Shown here one piece after another: positions 1,596 to 54,656 of a stretch of 64,000 bases of DNA. Within the stretch, counting starts at the first letter, position 1. Each line of letters begins with the position of its first letter. The notes under the pieces are model-generated. The model did no database searches, was not told where the DNA came from, and was given only the letters and a program-made list of their open reading frames with translations. The DNA comes from an uncultured Lentisphaeraceae bacterium. GTDB lineage: Bacteria; Verrucomicrobiota; Kiritimatiellia; RFP12; UBA1067. Location of the stretch: positions 13,752 through 77,751 of the forward strand of contig CAZMNN010000005.1 in NCBI GenBank assembly GCA_964567665.1. The letters run 5' to 3'. The translations under genes and the position numbers were made by a program.

Positions 1596-2486
1596 ATGAA
1601 CATGAAAACAGCCATGGGTGTATGCTGTGGAACTTTGATGATTTCCGCCATCGTCGTTTTGGCGGGATGCCATGTGCGGCCGCCGTCAGACGCCCTCGAT
1701 GAACCTGCCGCCGTTGAAGACGCGAACCCCACCCCGAAGAGGGTGACGAGACGGATATGTCTCCTTGAGAACGGCGACATCGGGAAGTACTGGTACACAT
1801 GGCTAAAGTCCGCACGAAAGCGCAACTGTGACACGAATGGCGTATTCACCGCTGAGGGGCGTACTCTCATGGTCAACGGGACGGACATGGGATGCGTCAC
1901 CACGCGTGATGCGTACAGTGACTACAGGCTTACACTTGAATTTCGCTATGTCGACAACGACAGGCAGTTGAACAAGAGGGCAGCCCGCGACGGCGGAATC
2001 CTGTTTCATTCAAACGGACCTGACGGGGCGTACGGAAACGGTATCTGGATGTACTCCTTCGAGTATAACATCATACAGGGGGCTGCCGGCGATCTGATTG
2101 TTGTTGGCAATGCGGCGAACCGCGCAGATGCACCGCACTATTCCTGCAAAGGGAACGTCAACCGGGGAACAATGGGGACGCCGGCTCAGCATTGGGATCC
2201 CAGCGGACCCGAAATCGTGCTGAAGGACAGTGGAAGGGTGCGTCGCTGCGACATTGATCACGAATGGAAGAATCTCATGTCGCAGCCGCTTTCACCGAAC
2301 GAAAACCCGATTGGCGAATGGAACCGAGCAGAGGTTGTGTGCCGTGGTGACAGCGCCGAGTTTTTCTTCAACGGTAAAAAGGTCGCTGAGTTCCGTGAAC
2401 TTAAGCCGTCTTCGGGACGCATCCAGCTTCAGAGCGAAGGATTCGGAATAGAGTACCGGAATATCGTGCTTGAGCCGGTGGAATGA
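1596..2486 (+). CDS. lipoprotein with DUF1080 (3-keto-disaccharide hydrolase-like, concanavalin-type) domain
   Basis: Signal peptide with lipobox LAGC; C-terminal IQLQSEGFGIEYRNIVLEP typical of DUF1080. Confidence 0.7.
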   Translation: MNMKTAMGVCCGTLMISAIVVLAGCHVRPPSDALDEPAAVEDANPTPKRVTRRICLLENGDIGKYWYTWLKSARKRNCDTNGVFTAEGRTLMVNGTDMGCVTTRDAYSDYRLTLEFRYVDNDRQLNKRAARDGGILFHSNGPDGAYGNGIWMYSFEYNIIQGAAGDLIVVGNAANRADAPHYSCKGNVNRGTMGTPAQHWDPSGPEIVLKDSGRVRRCDIDHEWKNLMSQPLSPNENPIGEWNRAEVVCRGDSAEFFFNGKKVAEFRELKPSSGRIQLQSEGFGIEYRNIVLEPVE

Positions 2487-2508: not shown

Positions 2509-4572
2509 ATGAGGTTCATTTGCGGAGCGCGAGGCAGCCGGCTTTCCGTTGCGCAGGCGCAGGGTTGCATTGCCTTTCTTGAGGCTGCCGTCGACGGATT
2601 CCGGGCGAAGCTGCGGACGTTCAAGACGCCCGGCGACAGAGATCTTTCAACCCCGATAGAGAAAAGTGCACCGGATTTCTTCACCCGCGACCTTGACGAG
2701 GCTGTCCGGTCGGGTGCGGTGGATTTTGCTGTGCATTCCGCGAAAGATCTTCCCGACGCCATTGTCGATGACCTGGACTGGTTCTGGCTCCCGAACCGTG
2801 AAGATCCGCGTGACTGCTGGGTTGCAAGGCTTGACGGCCCGCTTGCCGATCTCGACGCAGCAAGACGGAAGGGGGCGGGAGCAAAGATCGGCGTGTCGAG
2901 CGAAAGGCGCCGCTCGTTTGCGGAATTGCGATATCCCATGGCGAATCTGTTGCCGATAAGGGGCGCAATCGATTCTCGGCTCAATCAGTTGGCGGACGGC
3001 AGATTTGATGCGGTGCTGATGGCTGTCGCCGGACTTAAACGCCTCTATCCAGGTTGGGACGGCGGGGACAGGCTTGATGTCGATGGTTGCGCCTCGTTTG
3101 CAGTGAAAACGATCGGTGTGGAGGCACTTCCGCCGCCGGAGGGGCAGGGGTGTCTCGCGGTTGTGTTCAAGAAAGGGGATGCGCGGCTTGCCGCCGTGCG
3201 CCGGAACTTTGTCAAGGCCGTTCGCTTCACGAGCGCAGGCGTCGGTGACGCCGGAACGATAACGGTGCGCGGTGCACGTGATCTGGAAGAGGCGGACGTA
3301 GTGCTTGCGGACGCTCTTTCGGGATTCGGCGGACAGCGGCGCGACGGTGCGAAATGGGTGAATGTTGGCAAGCGTTGCGGCGCGCATTCCATGGCTCAGG
3401 GAGAGATTACGCGGCTAATCTGCGATGAAGCGAGGAAGGGGAGGCGCGTCGTTCGCCTCAAAGGCGGCGACGCCGGACTGTTCGGACGGCTTGCCGAGGA
3501 GACGGCGGCGCTTGATGCACTCGGCATTCCGTATGTTGTGCGTCCGGGAGTAAGTGCGCTTGTCGCAGCCACGTCTCCGAACGGCATTCTCCTCACGAAG
3601 CGGGGCGAGGCCGGCGGGTTTGAGGTTTCCACTCCGAGATCGGCGGGCAAAAAGACGCCTAAGGTGTTTTTCATGGCAACGCGGGTTGCCGGCGAGACGT
3701 TGAAGCGGTTTCCGGCAGACGAACCGTACGCAATGGTGTGGGATGCCTGCGGGCCTCACGAACGGATTCAGACCGGAATGTGCGGGAGTCCGGAACTGCG
3801 GGCGGACGATGCTCCGGGACTGCTCGTCGTCGGCTATGCGGGCGCACCGGTTGCATCAAGGCGCATTCTTCTAACGTGTTCAGAAGCAGTGATGCCGTGC
3901 GCCGAATGTCTGTTTGAAGATAGAGGCTTCCGCGTGGTCAAATGGCCGATGATAGCGCTCAGGTTCCGCGAAAGCTGCCGTGACGCCATTTCAGATGTCG
4001 CAGGCCGGTATGATGCGATTGTGCTTACCAGCCCCAGCGCCGCCCGGATGTTCTTCTCGGAATGCAGTTGCGACCGGCGGCATCTGCCGCGCTTCTGGAC
4101 TTGCGGATCCGGCACGGACGCTGAACTTCGGCGAAACGGCGTATCGAGCGATGTTATGCCAGATGGCGATTTCTCAGCAAAAGGCCTCGTGGAGAAATTG
4201 AAGCGCAATGCCGGAATCGTGAAAGGCAGCCGCATCCTGCGTCTGCGCAGCGCGAAGGCAGGCGGCCATGTCGCCAACGCCATCAGGCGCATGGGCGGAA
4301 AGGTGGATGACGTTGTGCTTTACGACAATGTGCCTGTCGCGCACGACGAGGCCGCCATGCCGTCCTGCGACGCTGTGTTCTTTGCAAGCTCCAGCGCGGT
4401 GGAGGCGTTTGTCTCGCGGTATGGCGCGAAATCACTTTCGCGCATGGACATATACGTGATAGGCGAGCCTACGCGCCGTGCGCTTCCTTGCCGCATGAGG
4501 GGGCGGGCGACGCCTTTTTCGCTGGCGGCGTTTGAGTCCGCAGCCGGCGACACAACCAGGGAATACAGATGA
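2509..4572 (+). CDS. three-module fusion: HemC-like (porphobilinogen deaminase domains 1-2) / uroporphyrinogen-III C-methyltransferase (CobA/SUMT) / uroporphyrinogen-III synthase (HemD)
   Basis: N-term MRFICGARGSRLSVAQA and AVHSAKDLP, VGTSSxRR-like GVSSERRRSF, AVAGLKRL match HemC. Middle TSAGVGDAGTITVRGARDLEEADVV...VRLKGGDAGLFGR...VRPGVSAL matches SUMT. C-term IVLTSPSAARMF...VIGEPT matches HemD. ORF track starts at TTG 2470; ATG 2509 (or GTG 2488) is more likely. Confidence 0.75.
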   Translation: MRFICGARGSRLSVAQAQGCIAFLEAAVDGFRAKLRTFKTPGDRDLSTPIEKSAPDFFTRDLDEAVRSGAVDFAVHSAKDLPDAIVDDLDWFWLPNREDPRDCWVARLDGPLADLDAARRKGAGAKIGVSSERRRSFAELRYPMANLLPIRGAIDSRLNQLADGRFDAVLMAVAGLKRLYPGWDGGDRLDVDGCASFAVKTIGVEALPPPEGQGCLAVVFKKGDARLAAVRRNFVKAVRFTSAGVGDAGTITVRGARDLEEADVVLADALSGFGGQRRDGAKWVNVGKRCGAHSMAQGEITRLICDEARKGRRVVRLKGGDAGLFGRLAEETAALDALGIPYVVRPGVSALVAATSPNGILLTKRGEAGGFEVSTPRSAGKKTPKVFFMATRVAGETLKRFPADEPYAMVWDACGPHERIQTGMCGSPELRADDAPGLLVVGYAGAPVASRRILLTCSEAVMPCAECLFEDRGFRVVKWPMIALRFRESCRDAISDVAGRYDAIVLTSPSAARMFFSECSCDRRHLPRFWTCGSGTDAELRRNGVSSDVMPDGDFSAKGLVEKLKRNAGIVKGSRILRLRSAKAGGHVANAIRRMGGKVDDVVLYDNVPVAHDEAAMPSCDAVFFASSSAVEAFVSRYGAKSLSRMDIYVIGEPTRRALPCRMRGRATPFSLAAFESAAGDTTREYR

Positions 4573-5078
4573 ACAAACTCATAGCATCGTTTCAGGTAGA
4601 CCATACACGCATCGGCTACGGCATCTTCGTGAGCCGCCGCGATGTCGTCAACGGAGCGTACGTCACGACGTTCGACATACGCATGAAGCGTCCGAACGCG
4701 GAACCTGCCATACATCCGAACGCAATGCACACGATAGAGCATATCGTCGCGACGTATCTGCGCAACTCGTCCTTCAAGGATCATGTTGTGTACTGGGGGC
4801 CTATGGGATGCCTCACCGGGTTCTATTTCATCACGAACACAGCCCATGCGATAGAACCGCAGGAGATTGAAAAGCTCATGCGCAGCGCATTCCGGCATCT
4901 TGCGAACTATCGCGGTGAAGTACCGGGGGCGACACCCGTCAACTGCGGAAACTATCTGCTGCACGATCTGCCGATGGCGAAACTTGAGGCGCGGATGTTT
5001 CTCGACAGAGAGTGGAAGTTCCGCTACCCGCCGGCAAAGCGCATAAAATCCGGCGGCCGGACATTCTTCGATGCATAG
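4569..5078 (+). CDS. luxS: S-ribosylhomocysteine lyase
   Basis: FxVDHTR, HTIEHI metal-binding motif, PMGCLTGFY, NCGNY; ATGA overlap with upstream fusion gene. Confidence 0.85.
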   Translation: MNKLIASFQVDHTRIGYGIFVSRRDVVNGAYVTTFDIRMKRPNAEPAIHPNAMHTIEHIVATYLRNSSFKDHVVYWGPMGCLTGFYFITNTAHAIEPQEIEKLMRSAFRHLANYRGEVPGATPVNCGNYLLHDLPMAKLEARMFLDREWKFRYPPAKRIKSGGRTFFDA

Positions 5079-5373
5079 CGGATGCTATGCCATGTTCCCT
5101 TTTGCTCACGGCGTCTGCCTTTAGGTATGCTTCTTTTGACGATGCAATCATACCGGATCTGCAGGCGCCGTGGGCACTCACCCGGCCATCCCCATAGCAA
5201 CCACAAATTTTGAATTTCTTTATTTACGCGTCAACGCAGGGAGAAGACGGCACGGAGAAACGTGGATGATGGCCGCGACCTTTTTTCTTCGTGGAGCGAC
5301 GCGGCGTTCTCTTGTCTAAAACTGCGCCACGAGATATTGCAACTTCCCGTGTTGCATTTAGTTTTTTGCGGTG

Positions 5374-5422: not shown

Positions 5423-5794
5423 ATGGCCGAGAATGAAAATCTTGATACGGAAGCTGTCGATGCGGTCGATGCTGATGCCGGCGACGCTCAGATCAACGAC
5501 ACGGACATAGTGTTCGATTGTCCGCATTGTGGACACAGCCTGTGCATCGACTATCGCGGCGCAGGTCTCCAGATTGCGTGTTCAGAATGCGGCGAGGCTG
5601 TGCTCGTGCCGATTCCAGACGGCATGAAGATTGATGATCTCGACCTTGATCCTGGCGAGATACTCAAGCAGCTGTTTGCGACGCGACGCAACCTTCAGCG
5701 TGCAGAGGCTCGTGCAGAGGCTCTTGAGGCGCGGCTTGCCGAAGTGGCGGAGAGGATTGCCGCAGTTCAGGAAATCATCGGTGAGGAAGCATGA
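5423..5794 (+). CDS. small MJ0042-type zinc-ribbon protein with C-terminal coiled coil
   Basis: FDCPHCGHSLCIDYRGAGLQIACSECGEAV (CPxC...CxxC); acidic N-terminus; Ala/Glu/Arg-rich helical C-terminus; ATGA overlap with next gene. Confidence 0.5.
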   Translation: MAENENLDTEAVDAVDADAGDAQINDTDIVFDCPHCGHSLCIDYRGAGLQIACSECGEAVLVPIPDGMKIDDLDLDPGEILKQLFATRRNLQRAEARAEALEARLAEVAERIAAVQEIIGEEA

Positions 5795-17546: not shown

Positions 17547-19448
17547 ATGGCAACATCGGATCATCGGAGTCTCTTTTCGGTGAAGATGCGAGCGTCGCGC
17601 AACGGCGAGCACATCTCCGGAGCGGAGCGCATCGTCAGCGAATCGTCAATTCCGCAGCTTGTGGGCGTCATGGCGGAACGGGCACTACGCCACGCAAAGG
17701 GGAAGCCTGATTTCATAAACGTGAAGGTGGAGTCCGCCCCTGAGCCGCTTCTGCTGAAGGCCCTTCCCGTATCAACGCGCACTGTGAAGTCGCCTGAGGA
17801 GGGATGGAGCGCGGTGCGCGAGATCCTTGCTTCGGATGGCGTCACGCGCATCGACGAAATCGTCTCGCTGTTCAGGCAGACGTACGGAATGCGCGGAGCG
17901 ATGCTGCTTGACGCCGACACATTGGAGCGGCTTGAACCTGATCCGGCGAGAGGCGTAAGGGCGACGTTCATGGATGACGCCGCCAGCGCTTCGCACGGAT
18001 TCTCCAACGAGAAGAACCACTATGCGGAGGCGATTGTGCTTGCCACGAAGGTCGCGAACGCGCCGGGCATAGTCGGAGAGATATGCATGTCGGACGATCC
18101 GGACTACGTGACGGGGTATGTCGCGTCACGGCGCATCGGTTATGTGCGCATATCGTGCATGAAGCGTCCGGGAGACCCGTCGGGCGGAAGGATATTTCTC
18201 TATCGTGGACTGCGTTCGGACGTCGGAAACGCAATAGACTTCATACAGCGCAGATGCGTTCTCGTGACCGAGGTTCCGCCGCGTCCGTCGGAGATATGCA
18301 ATGCCGCGTCAAGCCGCCATTCCGAAAATCCGACGGCAGATGACATGAGGCGCGAACTGGACGACATCCGCACGGCGGGGCTATGGCGCGAAGTCCGGGA
18401 GCCCCCGTCTGGATTGAAGGCCTTTGCCGACAACGATTATCTTGGTCTCGCCGGAGATCCTCGCCTCAAGGAGGCTGCAAAGAACGCCACGGATGCGTTC
18501 GGTGCGGGAGCGGGCGCATCCCGTCTCGTGACCGGGACGCTGCCGCCGCATCTTGAGCTGGAGCGACACCTTGCGCGGTTCAAGGGAACGGAGGATGCCA
18601 TAACCTGGGCTACGGGCTACATGGCCAATCTCGGCACGATATCCGCCATTGCCGGAAAGGGCGACGCCGTGTTCAGCGACGAGCTGAACCACGCGAGCAT
18701 TGTGGACGGTTGCCGCCTTTCCAAGGCAGATGTCTTTGTGTACCGGCACAACGACATGGCTGACCTCGCCGTGAAGATTGCCGGTGCAGGGCGGCGCAGA
18801 CGGATGTTGGCGGTGTCCGATGCGGTGTTTTCAATGGATGGCGATGTGATGGATCTGCCTCGCTTCATCGATGTGTGCCGCACCGGCGGCGTAATGTCGA
18901 TGGTGGACGAAGCCCATTCCACTGGAGTTATGGGAGCGACGGGACGCGGCCTCTGCGAACATTTCGGATGCAGTCATCCCGACATTCTCATGGGGACGCT
19001 TTCAAAAGCCGCAGGAAGTGAAGGCGGATACGTGTGCGCGTCGAAGATGATTTGCGACTATCTGCGGAACAGGTCGCGTCCGTTCATCTTCTCCACGGCG
19101 TACAATCCAGGTTCGGCGGCTGCGGCGGATGCCGCGCTTTCGCTTATTGAACGCCATCCCGAACTCGCCGCAACGGTGCGGCGGAAGGCGCAGGATTTCG
19201 CGGCGATGCTCCGCGAACGCGGCATTTCCGCCAAGACGGAGAGTGCAATCGTCCCTGTCGTAATCGGTGATGAGCGCAGAGCGGTGGAGGTGTCCGGCGA
19301 ACTCCGCAGACGCGGATTTCTTGTCCCGGCGATACGCTATCCGACGGTCGCCAAAGGTGCGGCGCGTCTTCGCGTGTCGGTTTCGGCGGCGTCCCGCCAT
19401 GAAGACCTGTGTGCGCTCGCAGATGCGATTGCCGGCTGCATGAGGTAG
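17547..19448 (+). CDS. fusion of 6-carboxyhexanoate-CoA ligase (BioW) and 8-amino-7-oxononanoate synthase (BioF)
   Basis: N-terminal half aligns to B. subtilis BioW (FSVKMRASRNGEHISGAER, GKPDF, SPEEG, SDDPDYVTGYVASRRIGYVRI). C-terminal half is a class-II aminotransferase with BioF features (DNDYLGL, SMDGDVMDL, TLSKAAG PLP lysine region). Confidence 0.8.
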   Translation: MATSDHRSLFSVKMRASRNGEHISGAERIVSESSIPQLVGVMAERALRHAKGKPDFINVKVESAPEPLLLKALPVSTRTVKSPEEGWSAVREILASDGVTRIDEIVSLFRQTYGMRGAMLLDADTLERLEPDPARGVRATFMDDAASASHGFSNEKNHYAEAIVLATKVANAPGIVGEICMSDDPDYVTGYVASRRIGYVRISCMKRPGDPSGGRIFLYRGLRSDVGNAIDFIQRRCVLVTEVPPRPSEICNAASSRHSENPTADDMRRELDDIRTAGLWREVREPPSGLKAFADNDYLGLAGDPRLKEAAKNATDAFGAGAGASRLVTGTLPPHLELERHLARFKGTEDAITWATGYMANLGTISAIAGKGDAVFSDELNHASIVDGCRLSKADVFVYRHNDMADLAVKIAGAGRRRRMLAVSDAVFSMDGDVMDLPRFIDVCRTGGVMSMVDEAHSTGVMGATGRGLCEHFGCSHPDILMGTLSKAAGSEGGYVCASKMICDYLRNRSRPFIFSTAYNPGSAAAADAALSLIERHPELAATVRRKAQDFAAMLRERGISAKTESAIVPVVIGDERRAVEVSGELRRRGFLVPAIRYPTVAKGAARLRVSVSAASRHEDLCALADAIAGCMR

Positions 19449-31111: not shown

Positions 31112-32428
31112 ATGCAAAACAGAAGAGGATTCTTGAGGAACGCTGCGGCGTTTGGCGCATTCGCCATCGTGCCTGCCCGCGTCCTGCGCGGAGCGACAGC
31201 TCCGTCCAACCAGCTCACACGCGCTCTGATCGGCTTCGGTTCGATTGCGCATTCCGCAAACCATCTCCCGTTCAAGGGGTCGCGCCTCATCGGTCTCTGC
31301 GATCCGTACGAGGCTCGCGTACAGGCAGGTCTGAAGGCCGCGCAGGACAACGGCTTCGGAAAGATTAAGGGCTACGGGAACTTCCTTGAGCTGCTTGCAG
31401 ACAAGGATGTCGATATCGTCCACATCTGCACGCCGCCGCACTGGCATGGCTGCATGAGCGTGATGGCGGCGAACGCCGGAAAGGACATCTGGTGCGAAAA
31501 GCCGATGACGCGCACCGTGGGTGAAGGAAAGCGCGTGATGGAGGTCGTAAAGGCCAAGAAGCGCATGTTCCGGCTCAACACGTGGTTCCGCTTCCAGAGC
31601 ACATTCTACGGATTCGGCACGACCGTCAAGCCTATTCGTCAGGTTGTCGAAAACGGACTTCTCGGCGAAGGTCCGATCAAGTGCACGTTCGGCGCGGGAC
31701 AGGGCTTCAGCTGGAAGTTCTTCTGGTCTGGCCGCGTCAACTCCGCGCCGGAGCCGATACCCGCCGGGTTCGATTGGGACATGTGGCTCGGTCCGGCGCC
31801 GTGGAAGCCGTACACCGCGCACCGCGCCGGCACATCCTTCCGCGGCTACTGGGACTACGATTCGGGCGGGCTTGGCGACATGGCTCAGCACTATCTCGAT
31901 CCGCTCCAGTACCTTCTCTGCAAGGACGAGACGAGTCCGGTGAAGGTCGATTACGTTGGCCCGAAGCAGCATCCGGAATCCGTCGGTCGCTTCGACCGCA
32001 TCACGCTCACGTATGCGGACGGCACGGAGGTCGTGCTGGACGGCGACGAATCGCTCAAGGGCGAACCGCTCCTTCGCGGCTCTAACGGACTGTGCGTCTA
32101 CCCGAAGGCGAAGGACGGCAAGACACTCCGCCTTGTTGACGCCAGCGGCAAGGAGCTGAACGCGGAGAAGATCCTCTCCGACCTGCCCGAGCCGGCGCCT
32201 CAGCAGACCGACTTCATCGACAGCTGCACGAACCGCAAGACGTTTGCGCTCAACGAGTCGAACGGCTTCCGCTCCTGCACGATGTTCAACCTCGGAATCG
32301 CGGCTGAGCGCCTTGGACGCGGATTCAGGTTCGACCCCGAAACGCTCCACGCCGTGGACGATCCGGCGGCAGACCGTTTCCTCTACCAGTCCATGCGCGA
32401 ACCGTGGCGCAAGGAGATGTGGGGCTGA
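31112..32428 (+). CDS. Gfo/Idh/MocA-family oxidoreductase with twin-arginine (TAT) signal
   Basis: MQNRRGFLRNAAAFGAFA TAT motif; Rossmann N-terminus and DIVHICTPPHWH region typical of the family. Confidence 0.7.
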   Translation: MQNRRGFLRNAAAFGAFAIVPARVLRGATAPSNQLTRALIGFGSIAHSANHLPFKGSRLIGLCDPYEARVQAGLKAAQDNGFGKIKGYGNFLELLADKDVDIVHICTPPHWHGCMSVMAANAGKDIWCEKPMTRTVGEGKRVMEVVKAKKRMFRLNTWFRFQSTFYGFGTTVKPIRQVVENGLLGEGPIKCTFGAGQGFSWKFFWSGRVNSAPEPIPAGFDWDMWLGPAPWKPYTAHRAGTSFRGYWDYDSGGLGDMAQHYLDPLQYLLCKDETSPVKVDYVGPKQHPESVGRFDRITLTYADGTEVVLDGDESLKGEPLLRGSNGLCVYPKAKDGKTLRLVDASGKELNAEKILSDLPEPAPQQTDFIDSCTNRKTFALNESNGFRSCTMFNLGIAAERLGRGFRFDPETLHAVDDPAADRFLYQSMREPWRKEMWG

Positions 32429-32459
32429 TTCCAGATACATGACTACCGGAGAAGCAGAA

Positions 32460-33980
32460 ATGAAGAAACTTTTTTGTGCGATGATGATTGCCGGCGCGAT
32501 GGCCGCCGGTGCGGCGGATCCCAACAAGTACGCCGACTACGGAGCGGGCATGGCGCCGGACAAGACCTACCCGATGGCGGTGGAATGGCACGCCGCCAAC
32601 CGCGCCGCGATCGAGACGGAGACCTCGGACGACAAGCTTGCCGGGTTCGTGGCGGATTCGGCAAGCGCGAAGGCTCTGCTCGCCAAGGTCAAGCCGGCGT
32701 ACGACACCGACCCGATGGTGGCTGCGCAGGTCGCCGCAGCGAGCCAGTACGTGATGCGCACCGAACCGTCGTGGTGGGAGTTCTGGGCATGGTTCTCGGA
32801 CTCCGATCGTGACGTCTGGACTGCTGCGCTGCTCGAAGCGGCGGCTGACGCGAAGGACGCATACTGCAAGATGCTGTTCCTCGACCAGCTGCGCTGGTGC
32901 GGGCGGCAGGATCAGGCGGCGAACGTCCTTGAGATCGGAAAGGCGTCAAACGACAGGGGCGTGATGCAGTTCGCCGACATGGTGGCGGCGGAACTCGATC
33001 CTGAAGCCGGATGCGCGAAGGCCTGCTGCAAGGTCAATTGCCCGTACGGCAGCTGGGCGCTGACGCTTCCGTTCGATGCGATGAACGCCGGACACCTCAT
33101 CCTGTCGAAGGGCGCGGACGGCAAGCCCACGGCCACGCTGCTGTGGCGCTGGGGAAGTCCGTTCACCGTCGCCGGTGATGACCTCAAGGTCTGCAAGGAC
33201 GGCTTCACCCTCACGTTCGGCAACCACAAGCCGAAGGATCTGCCGCAGGACAAGAGCGCATGGCGCAGCGACCGCGTGATCGCGAAGATCTGCGGGGACT
33301 GGGCGGCCTGCACCCTCCAGAAGGTGGACGGCAACGGCAAGGTCGTCGGCGCGGTGCAGACGTTCTCCGCAAAGCGCAATCCGCCGATCGGTCCGAAGCC
33401 GGACCTCGCGAAGGCCGTGCGCGGCACTCCGGTGAACATCCTGGGCGGGACGATCGACGACTTTGAGTTAATGGAGAAGTCACTGACGAACGGCTGGACG
33501 CTGAAGGACGGAGTGCTCTCCAACCGCATTATGCGCGACACCAACGGCAAGTCGCTCCACAAGAACGGAAACCTCCGCACGAAGCGCACCGATTTCTTTG
33601 ACTTCAACCTCAAGTACGAAGTGCGCGTCCTTCCGGGCTGCAACTCCGGCGTGTATCTGCGCGGCATCTACGAGATTCAGGTGCTCGACAGCTACGGCAA
33701 GCCGGTCGACTGCCACAACATGGCGGCGTACTACGGCCGCGTTACGCCCCGCGTTGCGGCAGAGAAGAAGGCCGGCGAATGGCAGACGGTTGACGTCACG
33801 CTCTACAAGCGGCATCTCACGGTTGTCCTGAACGGCGTGAACATCATCGACAACGTGCCGGTCGTCGGAATCACCGGCGGCGCAATGACGGCGAACGAAT
33901 TCACGCCGGGACCGCTCTACATCCAGGGCGACCACTCTGACGCCGACTTCCGCAACATGGTGCTCACACCGTTGAAGTGA
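32460..33980 (+). CDS. secreted protein with C-terminal DUF1080 domain
   Basis: ATG 32460 with signal peptide MKKLFCAMMIAGAMAAGAA; C-terminal roughly 170 aa match the DUF1080 pattern (YLRGIYEIQVLDS...ADFRNMVLTP); the ORF track start 32244 overlaps the upstream gene. Confidence 0.6.
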   Translation: MKKLFCAMMIAGAMAAGAADPNKYADYGAGMAPDKTYPMAVEWHAANRAAIETETSDDKLAGFVADSASAKALLAKVKPAYDTDPMVAAQVAAASQYVMRTEPSWWEFWAWFSDSDRDVWTAALLEAAADAKDAYCKMLFLDQLRWCGRQDQAANVLEIGKASNDRGVMQFADMVAAELDPEAGCAKACCKVNCPYGSWALTLPFDAMNAGHLILSKGADGKPTATLLWRWGSPFTVAGDDLKVCKDGFTLTFGNHKPKDLPQDKSAWRSDRVIAKICGDWAACTLQKVDGNGKVVGAVQTFSAKRNPPIGPKPDLAKAVRGTPVNILGGTIDDFELMEKSLTNGWTLKDGVLSNRIMRDTNGKSLHKNGNLRTKRTDFFDFNLKYEVRVLPGCNSGVYLRGIYEIQVLDSYGKPVDCHNMAAYYGRVTPRVAAEKKAGEWQTVDVTLYKRHLTVVLNGVNIIDNVPVVGITGGAMTANEFTPGPLYIQGDHSDADFRNMVLTPLK

Positions 33981-34095: not shown

Positions 34096-34172
34096 TGGTC
34101 GGAGCGACGAGATTTGAACTCGTGACCTTTTGCACCCCAAGCAAACGCGCTACCAGACTGCGCTACGCCCCG
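34096..34172 (-). tRNA. tRNA-Pro (anticodon GGG)
   Basis: Reverse complement folds as CGGGGCG-TA-GCGC-AGTCTGGTA-GCGC-G-TTTGC-TTGGGGT-GCAAA-AGGTC-ACGAG-TTCAAAT-CTCGT-CGCTCCG-A-CCA (77 nt, encoded CCA). Confidence 0.85.
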
Positions 34173-38626: not shown

Positions 38627-38703
38627 TGGTCGGAGCGGAGGGATTTGAACCCTCGGCCTTTTGGTCCCGAACCAAACGCGCTACCAGACTGCGCTACGCT
38701 CCG
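38627..38703 (-). tRNA. tRNA-Pro (anticodon CGG)
   Basis: Reverse complement CGGAGCG-TA-GCGC-AGTCTGGTA-GCGC-G-TTTGG-TTCGGGA-CCAAA-AGGCC-GAGGG-TTCAAAT-CCCTC-CGCTCCG-A-CCA (77 nt). Confidence 0.85.
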
Positions 38704-52976: not shown

Positions 52977-52985
52977 TGGTATAAT
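52977..52985 (+). promoter_or_regulatory. extended -10 box TGGTATAAT upstream of etfB-like gene
   Basis: Exact match about 40 nt before ATG 53026. Confidence 0.45.
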
Positions 52986-53025
52986 GCCGCGCTTTGAGTC
53001 AACAGACAACACAGGTGATAGAGAA

Positions 53026-53826
53026 ATGTCAAAACCGCTGAACATAGTCGTATGCGGATCGCTCGTTCCGGATCCGCTCCAGACACTTGAACCGGTTCAG
53101 ACTCCGCAGGGTCCGGGGCTGAAGAATGAGCAGATGCTTCCGTCGGTGCTTGATCCGTGGGCGGCGTGTGCGCTCTACGAGGCCGCCGCTCTCGCCAAGA
53201 CCCGCCCCGGCTCGAAGGTCACGCTTGTCGCGCTTGGGCCGAAGGCCAAGCTCCAGCAGCTTATGATGACCGTGGCGCAGAAGGTTCCGTTCGAACTTGT
53301 AGCCGTGAACGCCTCTGCAGGCGGCTTCACGGATGCGAAGGCCACGGCGACGGAGCTTGCGAAGGCGATAAAGGCGATGCCGACGGCCCCTGACTTCATC
53401 TTCGGCGGATGCGCAAGCGCATCCCGCGACGCTGGCGTCACTCTTCAGTTCGTTGCGGAGATGCTTGGGATCACCGAGTTCTTCAACGCGGTCGACGAGC
53501 TTAAGCTCGCCGATGACGACGCATTCACGGTCAAGGAGCGCGTGGAGGGCGGCAAGTACCTTTCGTCCACGTGCAGCGGATTCCCTGCGGTCATCGGCTG
53601 GGCGACGGGAAGCCTGCCTGAGCCGCCGAACAACCCGCAGACGGGCATGATGAACATGCGCGGGGTGATGCCGGCTCTCATGAAGGCGCCCATGGCCAAT
53701 GTCGGCGCGGGCGGAATCGCATGGGAGAAGGCCGAAATCCCCGCGTCAAGGCGCGATACGGTTGTCAAGAAGGATATGTCCGTTGAGGATATCGCCAAGG
53801 AAATAGTGGAGTGGGTGAAATCATGA
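53026..53826 (+). CDS. electron-transfer-flavoprotein beta-subunit-like protein (EtfB/FixA family, divergent)
   Basis: LNIVVCGSLVPDP (ETF-beta KILVCVKxVPD), LDPWAACALYEAAALAK, VTLVALGP; collinear with ETFB over the whole length at low identity. Confidence 0.65.
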   Translation: MSKPLNIVVCGSLVPDPLQTLEPVQTPQGPGLKNEQMLPSVLDPWAACALYEAAALAKTRPGSKVTLVALGPKAKLQQLMMTVAQKVPFELVAVNASAGGFTDAKATATELAKAIKAMPTAPDFIFGGCASASRDAGVTLQFVAEMLGITEFFNAVDELKLADDDAFTVKERVEGGKYLSSTCSGFPAVIGWATGSLPEPPNNPQTGMMNMRGVMPALMKAPMANVGAGGIAWEKAEIPASRRDTVVKKDMSVEDIAKEIVEWVKS

Positions 53827-54656
53827 GGATCGTAGCGTTCAGGATTGACGGCAACGGGACTTTTGCGCAGGACGTACCGGCGTTCGCGCAGGCGATCAAG
53901 GACAGCGGGGCGGATATTGTGATTCTCCCCGGCAATTCCCGCGTGAAGCGTTCCGCCGCTGCGGCGGCGCTCCGTGCCGGCGGCGAGGTGGACACCAACG
54001 TGGTGGAGCTTGAGGTTGCGGACGGCAAGGCCGTCGCGAGCCGATGGGTGTACAGGCAGCGCATCTTCACGAAGTTCACGCGCACCGCAAAGCCGTGGGT
54101 CATCGTGGCCGACCCCTCGCTGTTCCAGGGGATGTGCGAGTCGGTCAACGCCGAGATGCAGACGCTTGACGTTCAGCCGGCGGCATCCCGCACCGTCGTC
54201 AACGGTGTCGAGAACGCCGGAACGGGCGGCGAATCAACGATACGCCCCGATGCGGAGCTGCTGTTCGTCGCCGGCGCGGGCTGGACGAAGAAGCAGGCGG
54301 ACGGCGCACTTCATTTAGACGATGCCGCCGCGACGATCACCGGCTTCCTCGCGAAGTCCGGCGCGTCTCTCGGCTCCTCGAAGTCGCTTGTGGACATGCC
54401 GGAGGCGGCGGAGGTGTTCAAGTTCATGAGCCACATGAACCAGGTCGGCCAGACCGGCTCCACTCCGCGTCACAAGAAGGGGCTTTCGACGTGCTGCCAC
54501 GGCGAGGAGCCGCATGTGGTCGGCTGGAGATTCGTCAACGAACGCAGGGCGGTCAACCTTGACGCAAACTGCGGCTGGGCGCAGGGCAAGGCCGATGTGG
54601 TGTATGTCGCCGATGCCTTTGCGGTCATGAAGAAGGTGAATGAGCTTCTTGGCTGA
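53823..54656 (+). CDS. electron-transfer-flavoprotein alpha-subunit-like protein (EtfA/FixB family, strongly divergent)
   Basis: AELLFVAGAGW and QVGQTGSTP resemble ETF-alpha, but the downstream FAD-binding signature (GISGAIQH) is not recognisable; ATGA coupling to the etfB-like gene. Confidence 0.5.
   Translation: MRIVAFRIDGNGTFAQDVPAFAQAIKDSGADIVILPGNSRVKRSAAAAALRAGGEVDTNVVELEVADGKAVASRWVYRQRIFTKFTRTAKPWVIVADPSLFQGMCESVNAEMQTLDVQPAASRTVVNGVENAGTGGESTIRPDAELLFVAGAGWTKKQADGALHLDDAAATITGFLAKSGASLGSSKSLVDMPEAAEVFKFMSHMNQVGQTGSTPRHKKGLSTCCHGEEPHVVGWRFVNERRAVNLDANCGWAQGKADVVYVADAFAVMKKVNELLG

Follow-up and report, generated by a model that had tools for sequence, protein, structure and literature searches.

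A HemC-methyltransferase-HemD fusion protein of Kiritimatiellia lacking HemC domain 3 and the cofactor cysteine: a candidate porphobilinogen-to-precorrin-2 enzyme

The 64,000-nucleotide stretch of DNA analysed here (the window) comes from an uncultured Lentisphaeraceae bacterium of the Kiritimatiellia and carries on its forward strand an open reading frame (ORF; positions 2509..4572, 687 residues from the ATG at 2509) in which three modules of tetrapyrrole synthesis are joined: domains 1 and 2 of HemC (hydroxymethylbilane synthase, HMBS), a uroporphyrinogen-III C-methyltransferase (SUMT, CobA-like) and a uroporphyrinogen-III synthase (HemD). HemC domain 3, with the cysteine that binds the dipyrromethane cofactor, is absent, and the methyltransferase stands in its place; the catalytic residues of domains 1 and 2 are retained. 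From the conservation of these residues and the gene context in relatives it is probable that the fusion is an active trifunctional enzyme that converts porphobilinogen to precorrin-2, and that its HMBS module works without the canonical cysteine-linked dipyrromethane cofactor.

The fusion gene and the absence of HemC domain 3

The order of the three modules within one ORF, as claimed in an earlier reading of this DNA (the sequence-only reading), is borne out by the Pfam matches to PF01379 (Porphobil_deam, residues 5-227), PF00590 (TP_methylase, residues 242-423) and PF02602 (HEM4, residues 468-659). Alternative start codons are TTG at 2470 (700 residues) and GTG at 2488 (694 residues), also on the forward strand, and gene callers have picked proteins of 687, 694 and 700 residues on identical contigs. 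The conservation within the family starts at CGARGSRLS, in keeping with the ATG at 2509.

The HemC module (2509..3204, forward strand; residues 1-232) is delimited by PF01379, by alignments to solved HMBS structures, by column statistics and by Foldseek. It has the two-lobe, periplasmic-binding-protein-like fold of HMBS domains 1 and 2 (PF01379, Foldseek), and the match to PF01379 (E 1.4e-43) is almost complete, covering profile positions 3-205 of 207. The TIGR00212 hemC profile of NCBIfam is matched over positions 3-212 of 293 only, and PF03900 (Porphobil_deamC) is not found in the fusion protein by Pfam. When the HemC part is aligned with 47 canonical HemCs recovered from other genomes, it is found that the methyltransferase starts about 20 residues past the GQG motif, exactly where the canonical domain 3 with its GGC cofactor motif starts. 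In canonical HemCs the GQG strand is followed by one helix and then by domain 3 with the G(G)C cofactor-cysteine motif, whereas in the fusion and its relatives the first methyltransferase strand, (R)..FVKAVRF..AG.G, comes immediately after the GQG strand and the helix. This junction (RRNFVKAVRF, 3199..3228, forward strand), from the last helix of HemC domain 1 to the first methyltransferase strand, is conserved across the family, and in an AlphaFold2 model it is formed by a helix (residues 225-231) and a strand (residues 238-244). A custom hidden Markov model (HMM) built from canonical domain 3, which recovers 53 canonical domains as a positive control, finds nothing better than E 0.97 in the six-frame ORFs of the window and of 17 related loci, searched with about 10 kb of flank on each side. 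The claim of the sequence-only reading that domain 3 and the cofactor cysteine are absent is therefore in agreement with Pfam, TIGR00212, the custom HMM and the alignment.

The AlphaFold2 model of the fusion, calculated from a 77-sequence alignment, has a mean predicted local distance difference test score (pLDDT) of 83.7 and a predicted template modelling score (pTM) of 0.83, values that are suggestive of a compact assembly of its three modules. In Foldseek, the alignment of solved HMBS structures with this model extends over about 230 columns, with a template modelling (TM) score near 0.61 when the target is taken as reference; this extent is that of HMBS domains 1 and 2 only. The matches 1AH5, 1PDA and 4HTG have a probability of 1.00 and root-mean-square deviations of 2-3 Å. 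Between AGLKRL and the PPEGQG strand the module has a variable insert (3046..3123, forward strand; residues 180-205), whose length differs among homologues, whose cysteine is not conserved and whose pairwise identity is 43%, compared with 65% for the whole HemC module. An insert after AVAGLKRL had been predicted at about 20 residues; it is present, but its size is about 13-17 residues when compared with the E. coli and B. megaterium enzymes.

The same architecture is widespread. More than 120 homologues (55-97% identity) share the three Pfam domains and lack PF03900 without exception; one of them carries the name Kiritimatiellae bacterium. When the HemC module alone is the query of an exhaustive HMMER search (E <1e-30), 74 clusters at 50% identity are obtained, nearly all of them proteins of about 650-740 residues with the HemC module at the N terminus. 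The domain-3-less HemC-SUMT-HemD fusions are referred to here as class A, defined by a length of about 650-740 residues, the presence of PF01379, PF00590 and PF02602 without PF03900, the signature TPGDRDL..PDFFTRDLD and the junction R..F.K.V.F..G.G; the window protein has all of these features. Among GTDB species representatives, class A proteins with 40-53% identity occur in Kiritimatiellia, Lentisphaerales, Victivallales, Candidatus Spyradenecus and unclassified Verrucomicrobiota metagenome-assembled genomes (MAGs).

In a sister architecture, class B, domain 3 is likewise lost. Class B consists of about 13 proteins of 690-746 residues from Planctomycetota and 'Ca. Brocadiia' MAGs (P0192, P0209, P0224, P0242 and relatives), in which SirC (NAD_binding_7) and HemA (GlutR_N) are followed by HemC domains 1-2. 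These proteins end 16-23 residues past the HemC module with a conserved PLDLGDRxxxPW tail, and in the loci L084 (10001-12145) and L086 (10001-12133) the stop codon overlaps the start of cobA/hemD. The column of the cofactor cysteine (E. coli C242) is occupied by Cys in 100% of 28 canonical HemCs, and this Cys is absent in classes A and B. The two classes share derived residues that are not found in canonical HemCs (P41, D45, D56, F57, D61, D63, Q160 and D162 in the numbering of the window protein), which suggests that the domain-3-less HemC module arose only once within the Planctomycetes-Verrucomicrobia-Chlamydiae (PVC) group.

Three further results of these searches concern the boundaries of the family. 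Stand-alone HemC-like matches of 243-264 residues are treated as fragments, as their contigs are only 1.4-3.4 kb long. A Verrucomicrobia MAG (L018, 4676-6748) has a divergent HemC-SUMT-HemD fusion with 30% identity, also without domain 3, in which the N-terminal glycine motif of the SUMT is altered (LLGCPADF for GAGPGD); this may be an independent or a highly derived case. A homologue search for canonical hemC in Kiritimatiellia and Lentisphaeria, with a Roseibacillus HemC as query, returns only matches with Verrucomicrobiae names. No description of a natural domain-3-less HMBS was found in full-text literature searches, whose coverage is incomplete, so that this absence is not proof of novelty.

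Active-site conservation, gene context and the proposed function

The catalytic set of HMBS is retained in the HemC module of the window protein, namely R8, S10, Q16, D43, F58, S77, K79, D80, R133, R134, R151, R157, R178, Q213 and G214. The E. coli residues with kept equivalents are R11, S13, Q19, F62, S81, K83, D84, R131, R132, R149, R155, R176, Q198 and G199; the catalytic aspartate D80 corresponds to E. coli D84, and F58 to F62. In E. coli HMBS these residues act in catalysis or bind the acetate and propionate side chains of the cofactor and the substrate. The catalytic and pyrrole-binding residues are at least 90% conserved, most of them 100%, in class A (n=58), class B (n=11) and canonical HemCs (n=28), and they are invariant in the clade of the window protein; D80 and the substrate- and cofactor-binding Arg, Ser, Lys and Gln residues hold across sequences down to 30% identity. 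The mean pairwise identities of the HemC, SUMT and HemD modules are comparable (65%, 69% and 62%, respectively), so that the HemC module is as constrained as the two other modules.

A distinct signature is common to the domain-3-less modules, TPGDRDL..TP....PDFFTRDLD, which includes D56 (codon 2674..2676, forward strand, identified by the column statistics). This position, G60 in E. coli, is Asp in 98-100% of the domain-3-less HemC modules and Gly in 89% of the canonical enzymes. As judged from the alignment, D56, beside the conserved F57-F58, is the most conspicuous difference near the active site.

The SUMT module (3217..3849, forward strand; residues 237-447; PF00590 E 5e-24) aligns end to end with residues 220-443 of CysG, and its fold has both subdomains in full, apart from a deletion of about 20 residues in the C-terminal one. 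In this alignment the motifs SAGVGD, LADAL, VGKR, KGGDA and FFMA are seen, which include the GxGxGD, VGKR and GGD motifs, and D268, K288 and M389 are at least 95% conserved. The latter are equivalent to the functional residues D248, K270 and M382 of CysG. The SUMT profiles are matched with 121.9 bits (TIGR01469) and 138 bits (NF004790), below the cut-offs of 185 and 198; owing to the shortened C-terminal subdomain, the matches reach only to about position 165 of 240-250. The HemD module (3859..4503, forward strand; residues 451-665; PF02602 E 2.7e-30) covers positions 6-210 of the 231 positions of PF02602, and the NCBIfam equivalogs of HemD are matched below their cut-offs. Together, SUMT and HemD are 29.6% identical to the CobA/HemD of Thermobrachium celere over 460 aligned positions, spanning residues 4-456 of the 486 residues of the latter.

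The gene context in relatives shows the fusion in the slot of hemC plus cobA/hemD. The canonical order, as in T. celere, is hemA-sirC-hemC-cobA/hemD-hemB-hemL. In a Kiritimatiellia locus (L015) the order is sulfite reductase/TusA, SirC-HemA, fusion, hemB and hemL; in a Lentisphaerales locus (L010), a NirDL/AhbAB-like sirohaem decarboxylase, SirC-HemA, fusion, hemB and hemL; in a Victivallales locus (L012), hemA, two radical SAM/SPASM genes (AhbC/D-like), AhbAB-like, SirC, fusion and hemB; and in locus L006, CbiK, SirC, fusion, hemB and hemL. In the Planctomycetota loci (L084-L086) the genes for 3'-phosphoadenosine 5'-phosphosulfate (PAPS) reductase and sulfite reductase are followed by SirC-HemA-HemC without domain 3, by CobA-HemD (with its start overlapping the preceding stop), and by hemB and hemL. 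These clusters hold every step from glutamyl-tRNA to sirohaem, or to haem via the sirohaem-dependent route, and their sole HemC is domain-3-less. In both architectures the HemC module always directly precedes SUMT-HemD. In the clade of the window protein, a full-length hemL is found two genes upstream of the fusion in a relative with 57% identity. The sulfite reductase gene of L015 (6142-8496) is itself a fusion, in which a NIR_SIR sulfite or nitrite reductase carries TusA, a sulfurtransferase domain, at its C terminus; the sirohaem genes follow immediately downstream.

It is predicted, with support from this gene context, that the HemC module converts four molecules of porphobilinogen to hydroxymethylbilane. 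Having kept the whole active-site cleft of domains 1 and 2, it would deaminate and condense porphobilinogen there and be the working HMBS of the pathway. HMBS would act first, then uroporphyrinogen-III synthase and then SUMT, to give precorrin-2. This would be used to make sirohaem, needed in assimilatory sulfite reduction, and in some relatives also for haem synthesis of the Ahb type. The tetrapyrrole would be built on a non-covalently held primer or without primer. The canonical cofactor sites (K79, S131, R133, R134 and R157) would then probably hold the nascent chain or a non-covalent dipyrrole instead, because the chain cannot be tethered to domain 3, and hydrolytic release from a cofactor would not be needed. 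The model, by its high pTM and the six-residue junction, suggests that the methyltransferase packs at the place of domain 3 and that HemD, followed by SUMT, receives the unstable bilane directly. As to the origin of the fusion, it is probable that, from the common gene order of hemC followed by cobA/hemD, an ancestral deletion across the 3' end of hemC brought the methyltransferase into direct continuity with domain 1, and that in the sister lineage domains 1-2 were left as the C terminus of sirC-hemA-hemC, translationally coupled to cobA/hemD.

Several points weigh against the assignment of an active HMBS. Cys242 of E. coli HMBS is the attachment site of the cofactor, and its loss abolishes activity. 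None of the three modules reaches its NCBIfam equivalog cut-off. A canonical hemC may be present elsewhere in these MAGs, outside the window and the examined loci. The 64 kb of the window are without hemA, hemB or hemL, and more generally no other tetrapyrrole gene is found in the window by Pfam on 30 further ORFs, by tblastn with HemA, HemB, HemL and HemC or by the domain-3 HMM; nor do Rfam and a tRNA scan show a cobalamin riboswitch in the window. Finally, the Kiritimatiellaeota are listed among predicted haem auxotrophs (PMC11139205), so that the pathway in the organism of the window may be partial. This prediction is compatible with a sirohaem-only role, and it could also reflect the failure of the prediction tools to recognise a domain-3-less HemC.

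An alternative that keeps the HMBS activity is that the dipyrromethane is still bound covalently, on another nucleophile: C103, C290, C305, C457, D56 or a residue of a partner protein. This is in agreement with the retention of all the cofactor-binding arginines, with the presence of D56 instead of the canonical Gly in nearly all domain-3-less modules, and with the cysteines of the window's own clade, in which C290, C305 and C457 never vary and C103 hardly varies; position 103 is, moreover, Cys in 100% of the class B modules. The wider family argues against it. In wider class A, Cys occupies position 103 in 19%, position 290 in 32% and position 457 in 46% of the proteins, and no cysteine column is more than 75% conserved across 57 diverse full-length class A proteins (30-69% identity). 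In thirteen of these 57, Cys is missing from all of positions 73, 103 and 138, the sites in the HemC module at which it is semi-conserved, and one protein (P0185) has a HemC module without any cysteine. Since no cysteine is conserved family-wide, a conserved thioether anchor is unlikely, and all candidate replacement cysteines (the DGC of the insert, GQGC, C103, C290, C305 and C457) are ruled out as family-wide anchors by their non-conservation. An ester to Asp would be chemically labile. Attachment to another nucleophile is thus considered unlikely.

The HemC module could also be a non-catalytic scaffold that binds porphobilinogen or bilane, or a regulatory domain, with a separate canonical HemC making the hydroxymethylbilane. 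The absence of domain 3 and of the cofactor Cys fits this, as does the TIGR00212 score of 148.8 bits, below the equivalog cut-off of 164, and the searches for hemC covered loci rather than whole genomes. Against it stands the conservation of D80 and of all the substrate- and cofactor-binding residues down to 30% identity; the fusion occupies the hemC position of otherwise complete sirohaem/haem clusters without another hemC, and the same loss of domain 3 is found in two fusion architectures across phyla. The substrate-binding or scaffolding role proposed in the sequence-only reading is therefore disfavoured, also by the constraint on the module, which equals that on its neighbours, and by its place in the sirohaem/Ahb clusters of relatives; we regard it as improbable.

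Its other suggestion, a domain 3 supplied in trans, here by a small separate docking protein, would be consistent with domain 3 being an autonomous fold in solved HMBS structures, and the PLDLGDRxxxPW tail of class B could be a docking motif. No domain-3-like ORF is found within about 10 kb of the 17 class A loci by the HMM that recovers 53 canonical domains as a control, and the class B operons, at three loci, carry no gene annotated with PF03900; supply in trans is very improbable. That the junction is an artefact, a sequencing frameshift or chimeric assembly of what is really hemC plus cobA/hemD, is refuted, with nothing found in its favour, by the identical gene arrangement in four independent metagenome assemblies, by a junction that is common to over 120 homologues and to some 70 clusters at 50% identity, and by the alignment and the domain-3 HMM, which find no remnant of domain 3 in any frame.

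The reading of the fusion as an active, trifunctional enzyme may also be extended, more tentatively, to other lineages: it is quite possible that PVC bacteria (Kiritimatiellia, Lentisphaeria, some Verrucomicrobiota and Planctomycetota, possibly Chlamydiae) use an HMBS without domain 3 and without covalent dipyrromethane, working with a non-covalent primer or none, and that the bilane is handed to a fused or translationally coupled HemD-SUMT.

The luxS gene and other neighbours in the window

The luxS gene (S-ribosylhomocysteine lyase, 4569..5078, forward strand) follows the fusion directly, its ATG overlapping the TGA of the fusion as ATGA, as already described from the sequence. The same succession is found in four contexts, namely the window (4569-5078), L003 (12063-12572), L091 (8235-8744) and L092 (8053-8562), and the upstream genes differ among all four. 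In more distant relatives luxS is not found directly after the fusion. The pair is a conserved feature of this Kiritimatiellia clade, and its occurrence with differing upstream genes indicates that the pairing is selected. SUMT releases two molecules of S-adenosylhomocysteine per product, and LuxS belongs to a route of S-adenosylhomocysteine recycling; it is plausible that luxS is paired with the fusion for the disposal or recycling of the S-adenosylhomocysteine made by the SUMT module.

The upstream neighbour (1596..2486, forward strand) encodes a protein of the 3-keto-disaccharide hydrolase/DUF1080 family (PF06439) with a LAGC lipobox. It adjoins the fusion only in assemblies of the same species and is probably functionally unrelated to it. 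The operon had been called an odd partnership, which is not supported: the DUF1080 neighbour is restricted to this species, and luxS follows the fusion in four contexts. As to the putative leaderless-type promoter of the DUF1080 gene, a TATAAT is present 7 nt before its ATG; a full sigma-70 site is not called there by the promoter scan. Downstream of luxS, two terminator-like hairpins with T tracts (5261..5356, forward strand) may mark the end of the transcription unit. In the promoter and terminator scan, the counts are not above the shuffled expectation, and the scan supports neither the presence nor the absence of co-transcription. A second PF06439 domain is found at the C terminus of a 578-residue protein (32244-33980, forward strand), such that more than one copy of this family is present in the segment.

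Other features of the window are noted here. An ORF of 123 residues (5423-5794, forward strand) has two CxxC pairs (CPHCGH...CSECGE), a coiled-coil-like tail and no Pfam match, and its position is conserved in same-species contigs (L087-L090). In an ORF of 633 residues (17547-19448, forward strand), BioW (6-carboxyhexanoate-CoA ligase, PF03744) stands together with a BioF-like domain of the class I/II aminotransferases, apparently as a BioW-BioF fusion. On the reverse strand, two genes for tRNA-Pro (anticodons GGG and CGG; 34096-34172 and 38627-38703) lie 4.5 kb apart and flank rhaA, a pilin-like gene and priA. Two adjacent genes with electron-transfer flavoprotein domains (280 and 281 residues; 52984-54656, forward strand) are found beside a GFO/IDH/MocA oxidoreductase and a GH123 glycosidase, which are unusual surroundings for an electron-transfer flavoprotein.

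Comparison with known tetrapyrrole enzymes

Bifunctional CobA/HemD fusions are known from Desulfovibrio vulgaris, Clostridium josui, Selenomonas ruminantium and Lactobacillus reuteri. The CobA/HemD proteins of T. celere (L020) and of the Planctomycetota (L084) resemble the window protein in the SUMT-HemD order and in the position in the hem operon after hemC; the window protein differs in having the N-terminal HemC domains 1-2 and a SUMT C-terminal subdomain that is about 20 residues shorter. CysG is also a multifunctional tetrapyrrole enzyme, and its SUMT half is the part that aligns with the window protein; in CysG, the SUMT is joined to the downstream dehydrogenase/ferrochelatase, whereas in the window protein it is joined to HemC and HemD.

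The addition of HemC to such a fusion was considered unusual in the sequence-only reading, and this does not hold: single ORFs with HemC, SUMT and HemD and with an intact PF03900 exist in Clostridia/Lachnospiraceae and Treponema, and the domain-3-less version is itself a large family. These full-length triple fusions (805-883 residues; L017, L019, L039 and L057, from Candidatus Merdivicinus, Blautia, Lachnospiraceae and Treponema) match the window protein in the identity and order of the three modules within one ORF, but keep PF03900 and the G(G)C motif. They are 28-30% identical to the window protein and, given this low identity and the different phyla, appear to be independent fusions.

Closer to the window protein are the class B proteins, with the same domain-3-less module and the same signature residues, also located immediately upstream of cobA/hemD in a sirohaem operon. 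They differ from the window fusion in that HemC is joined to the upstream enzymes, CobA-HemD is a separate, overlapping ORF, and the PLDLGDRxxxPW tail is present. A curated 'hydroxymethylbilane synthase' equivalog, NF002202/PRK01066, has 241 positions and is too short for domain 3. The window HemC module matches it with 108.7 bits over profile positions 24-190 of 241 and is not a member, as the cut-off is 251. NF002202 is probably the stand-alone HemC of Chlamydia (about 241 residues), which would make it a third PVC lineage.

To our knowledge, every HMBS characterised so far builds the tetrapyrrole on a dipyrromethane cofactor that is thioether-linked to the domain-3 cysteine, and this cofactor is central to the accepted mechanism of HMBS and to the interpretation of mutations in acute intermittent porphyria. 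If the proposed function is correct, the covalent primer would not be obligatory, and a minimal two-domain HMBS would be available for mechanistic work. Tools of pathway completeness that need a full-length HemC may wrongly score these PVC lineages as lacking the step, and so as tetrapyrrole or haem auxotrophs, and the conversion of porphobilinogen to precorrin-2 on a single polypeptide could serve the engineering of B12, sirohaem and haem pathways. When compared with the canonical HMBS enzymes (E. coli HemC, 1PDA; human HMBS; B. megaterium; A. thaliana), the window module has the fold of domains 1-2 and the cleft residues in common, and differs by the absence of domain 3 and of the Cys242 equivalent, by the replacement of G60 by Asp and by the PDFFTRDLD signature. 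What sets the window protein apart is that HemC domain 3 has been lost; that HemC is part of the fusion is not special.

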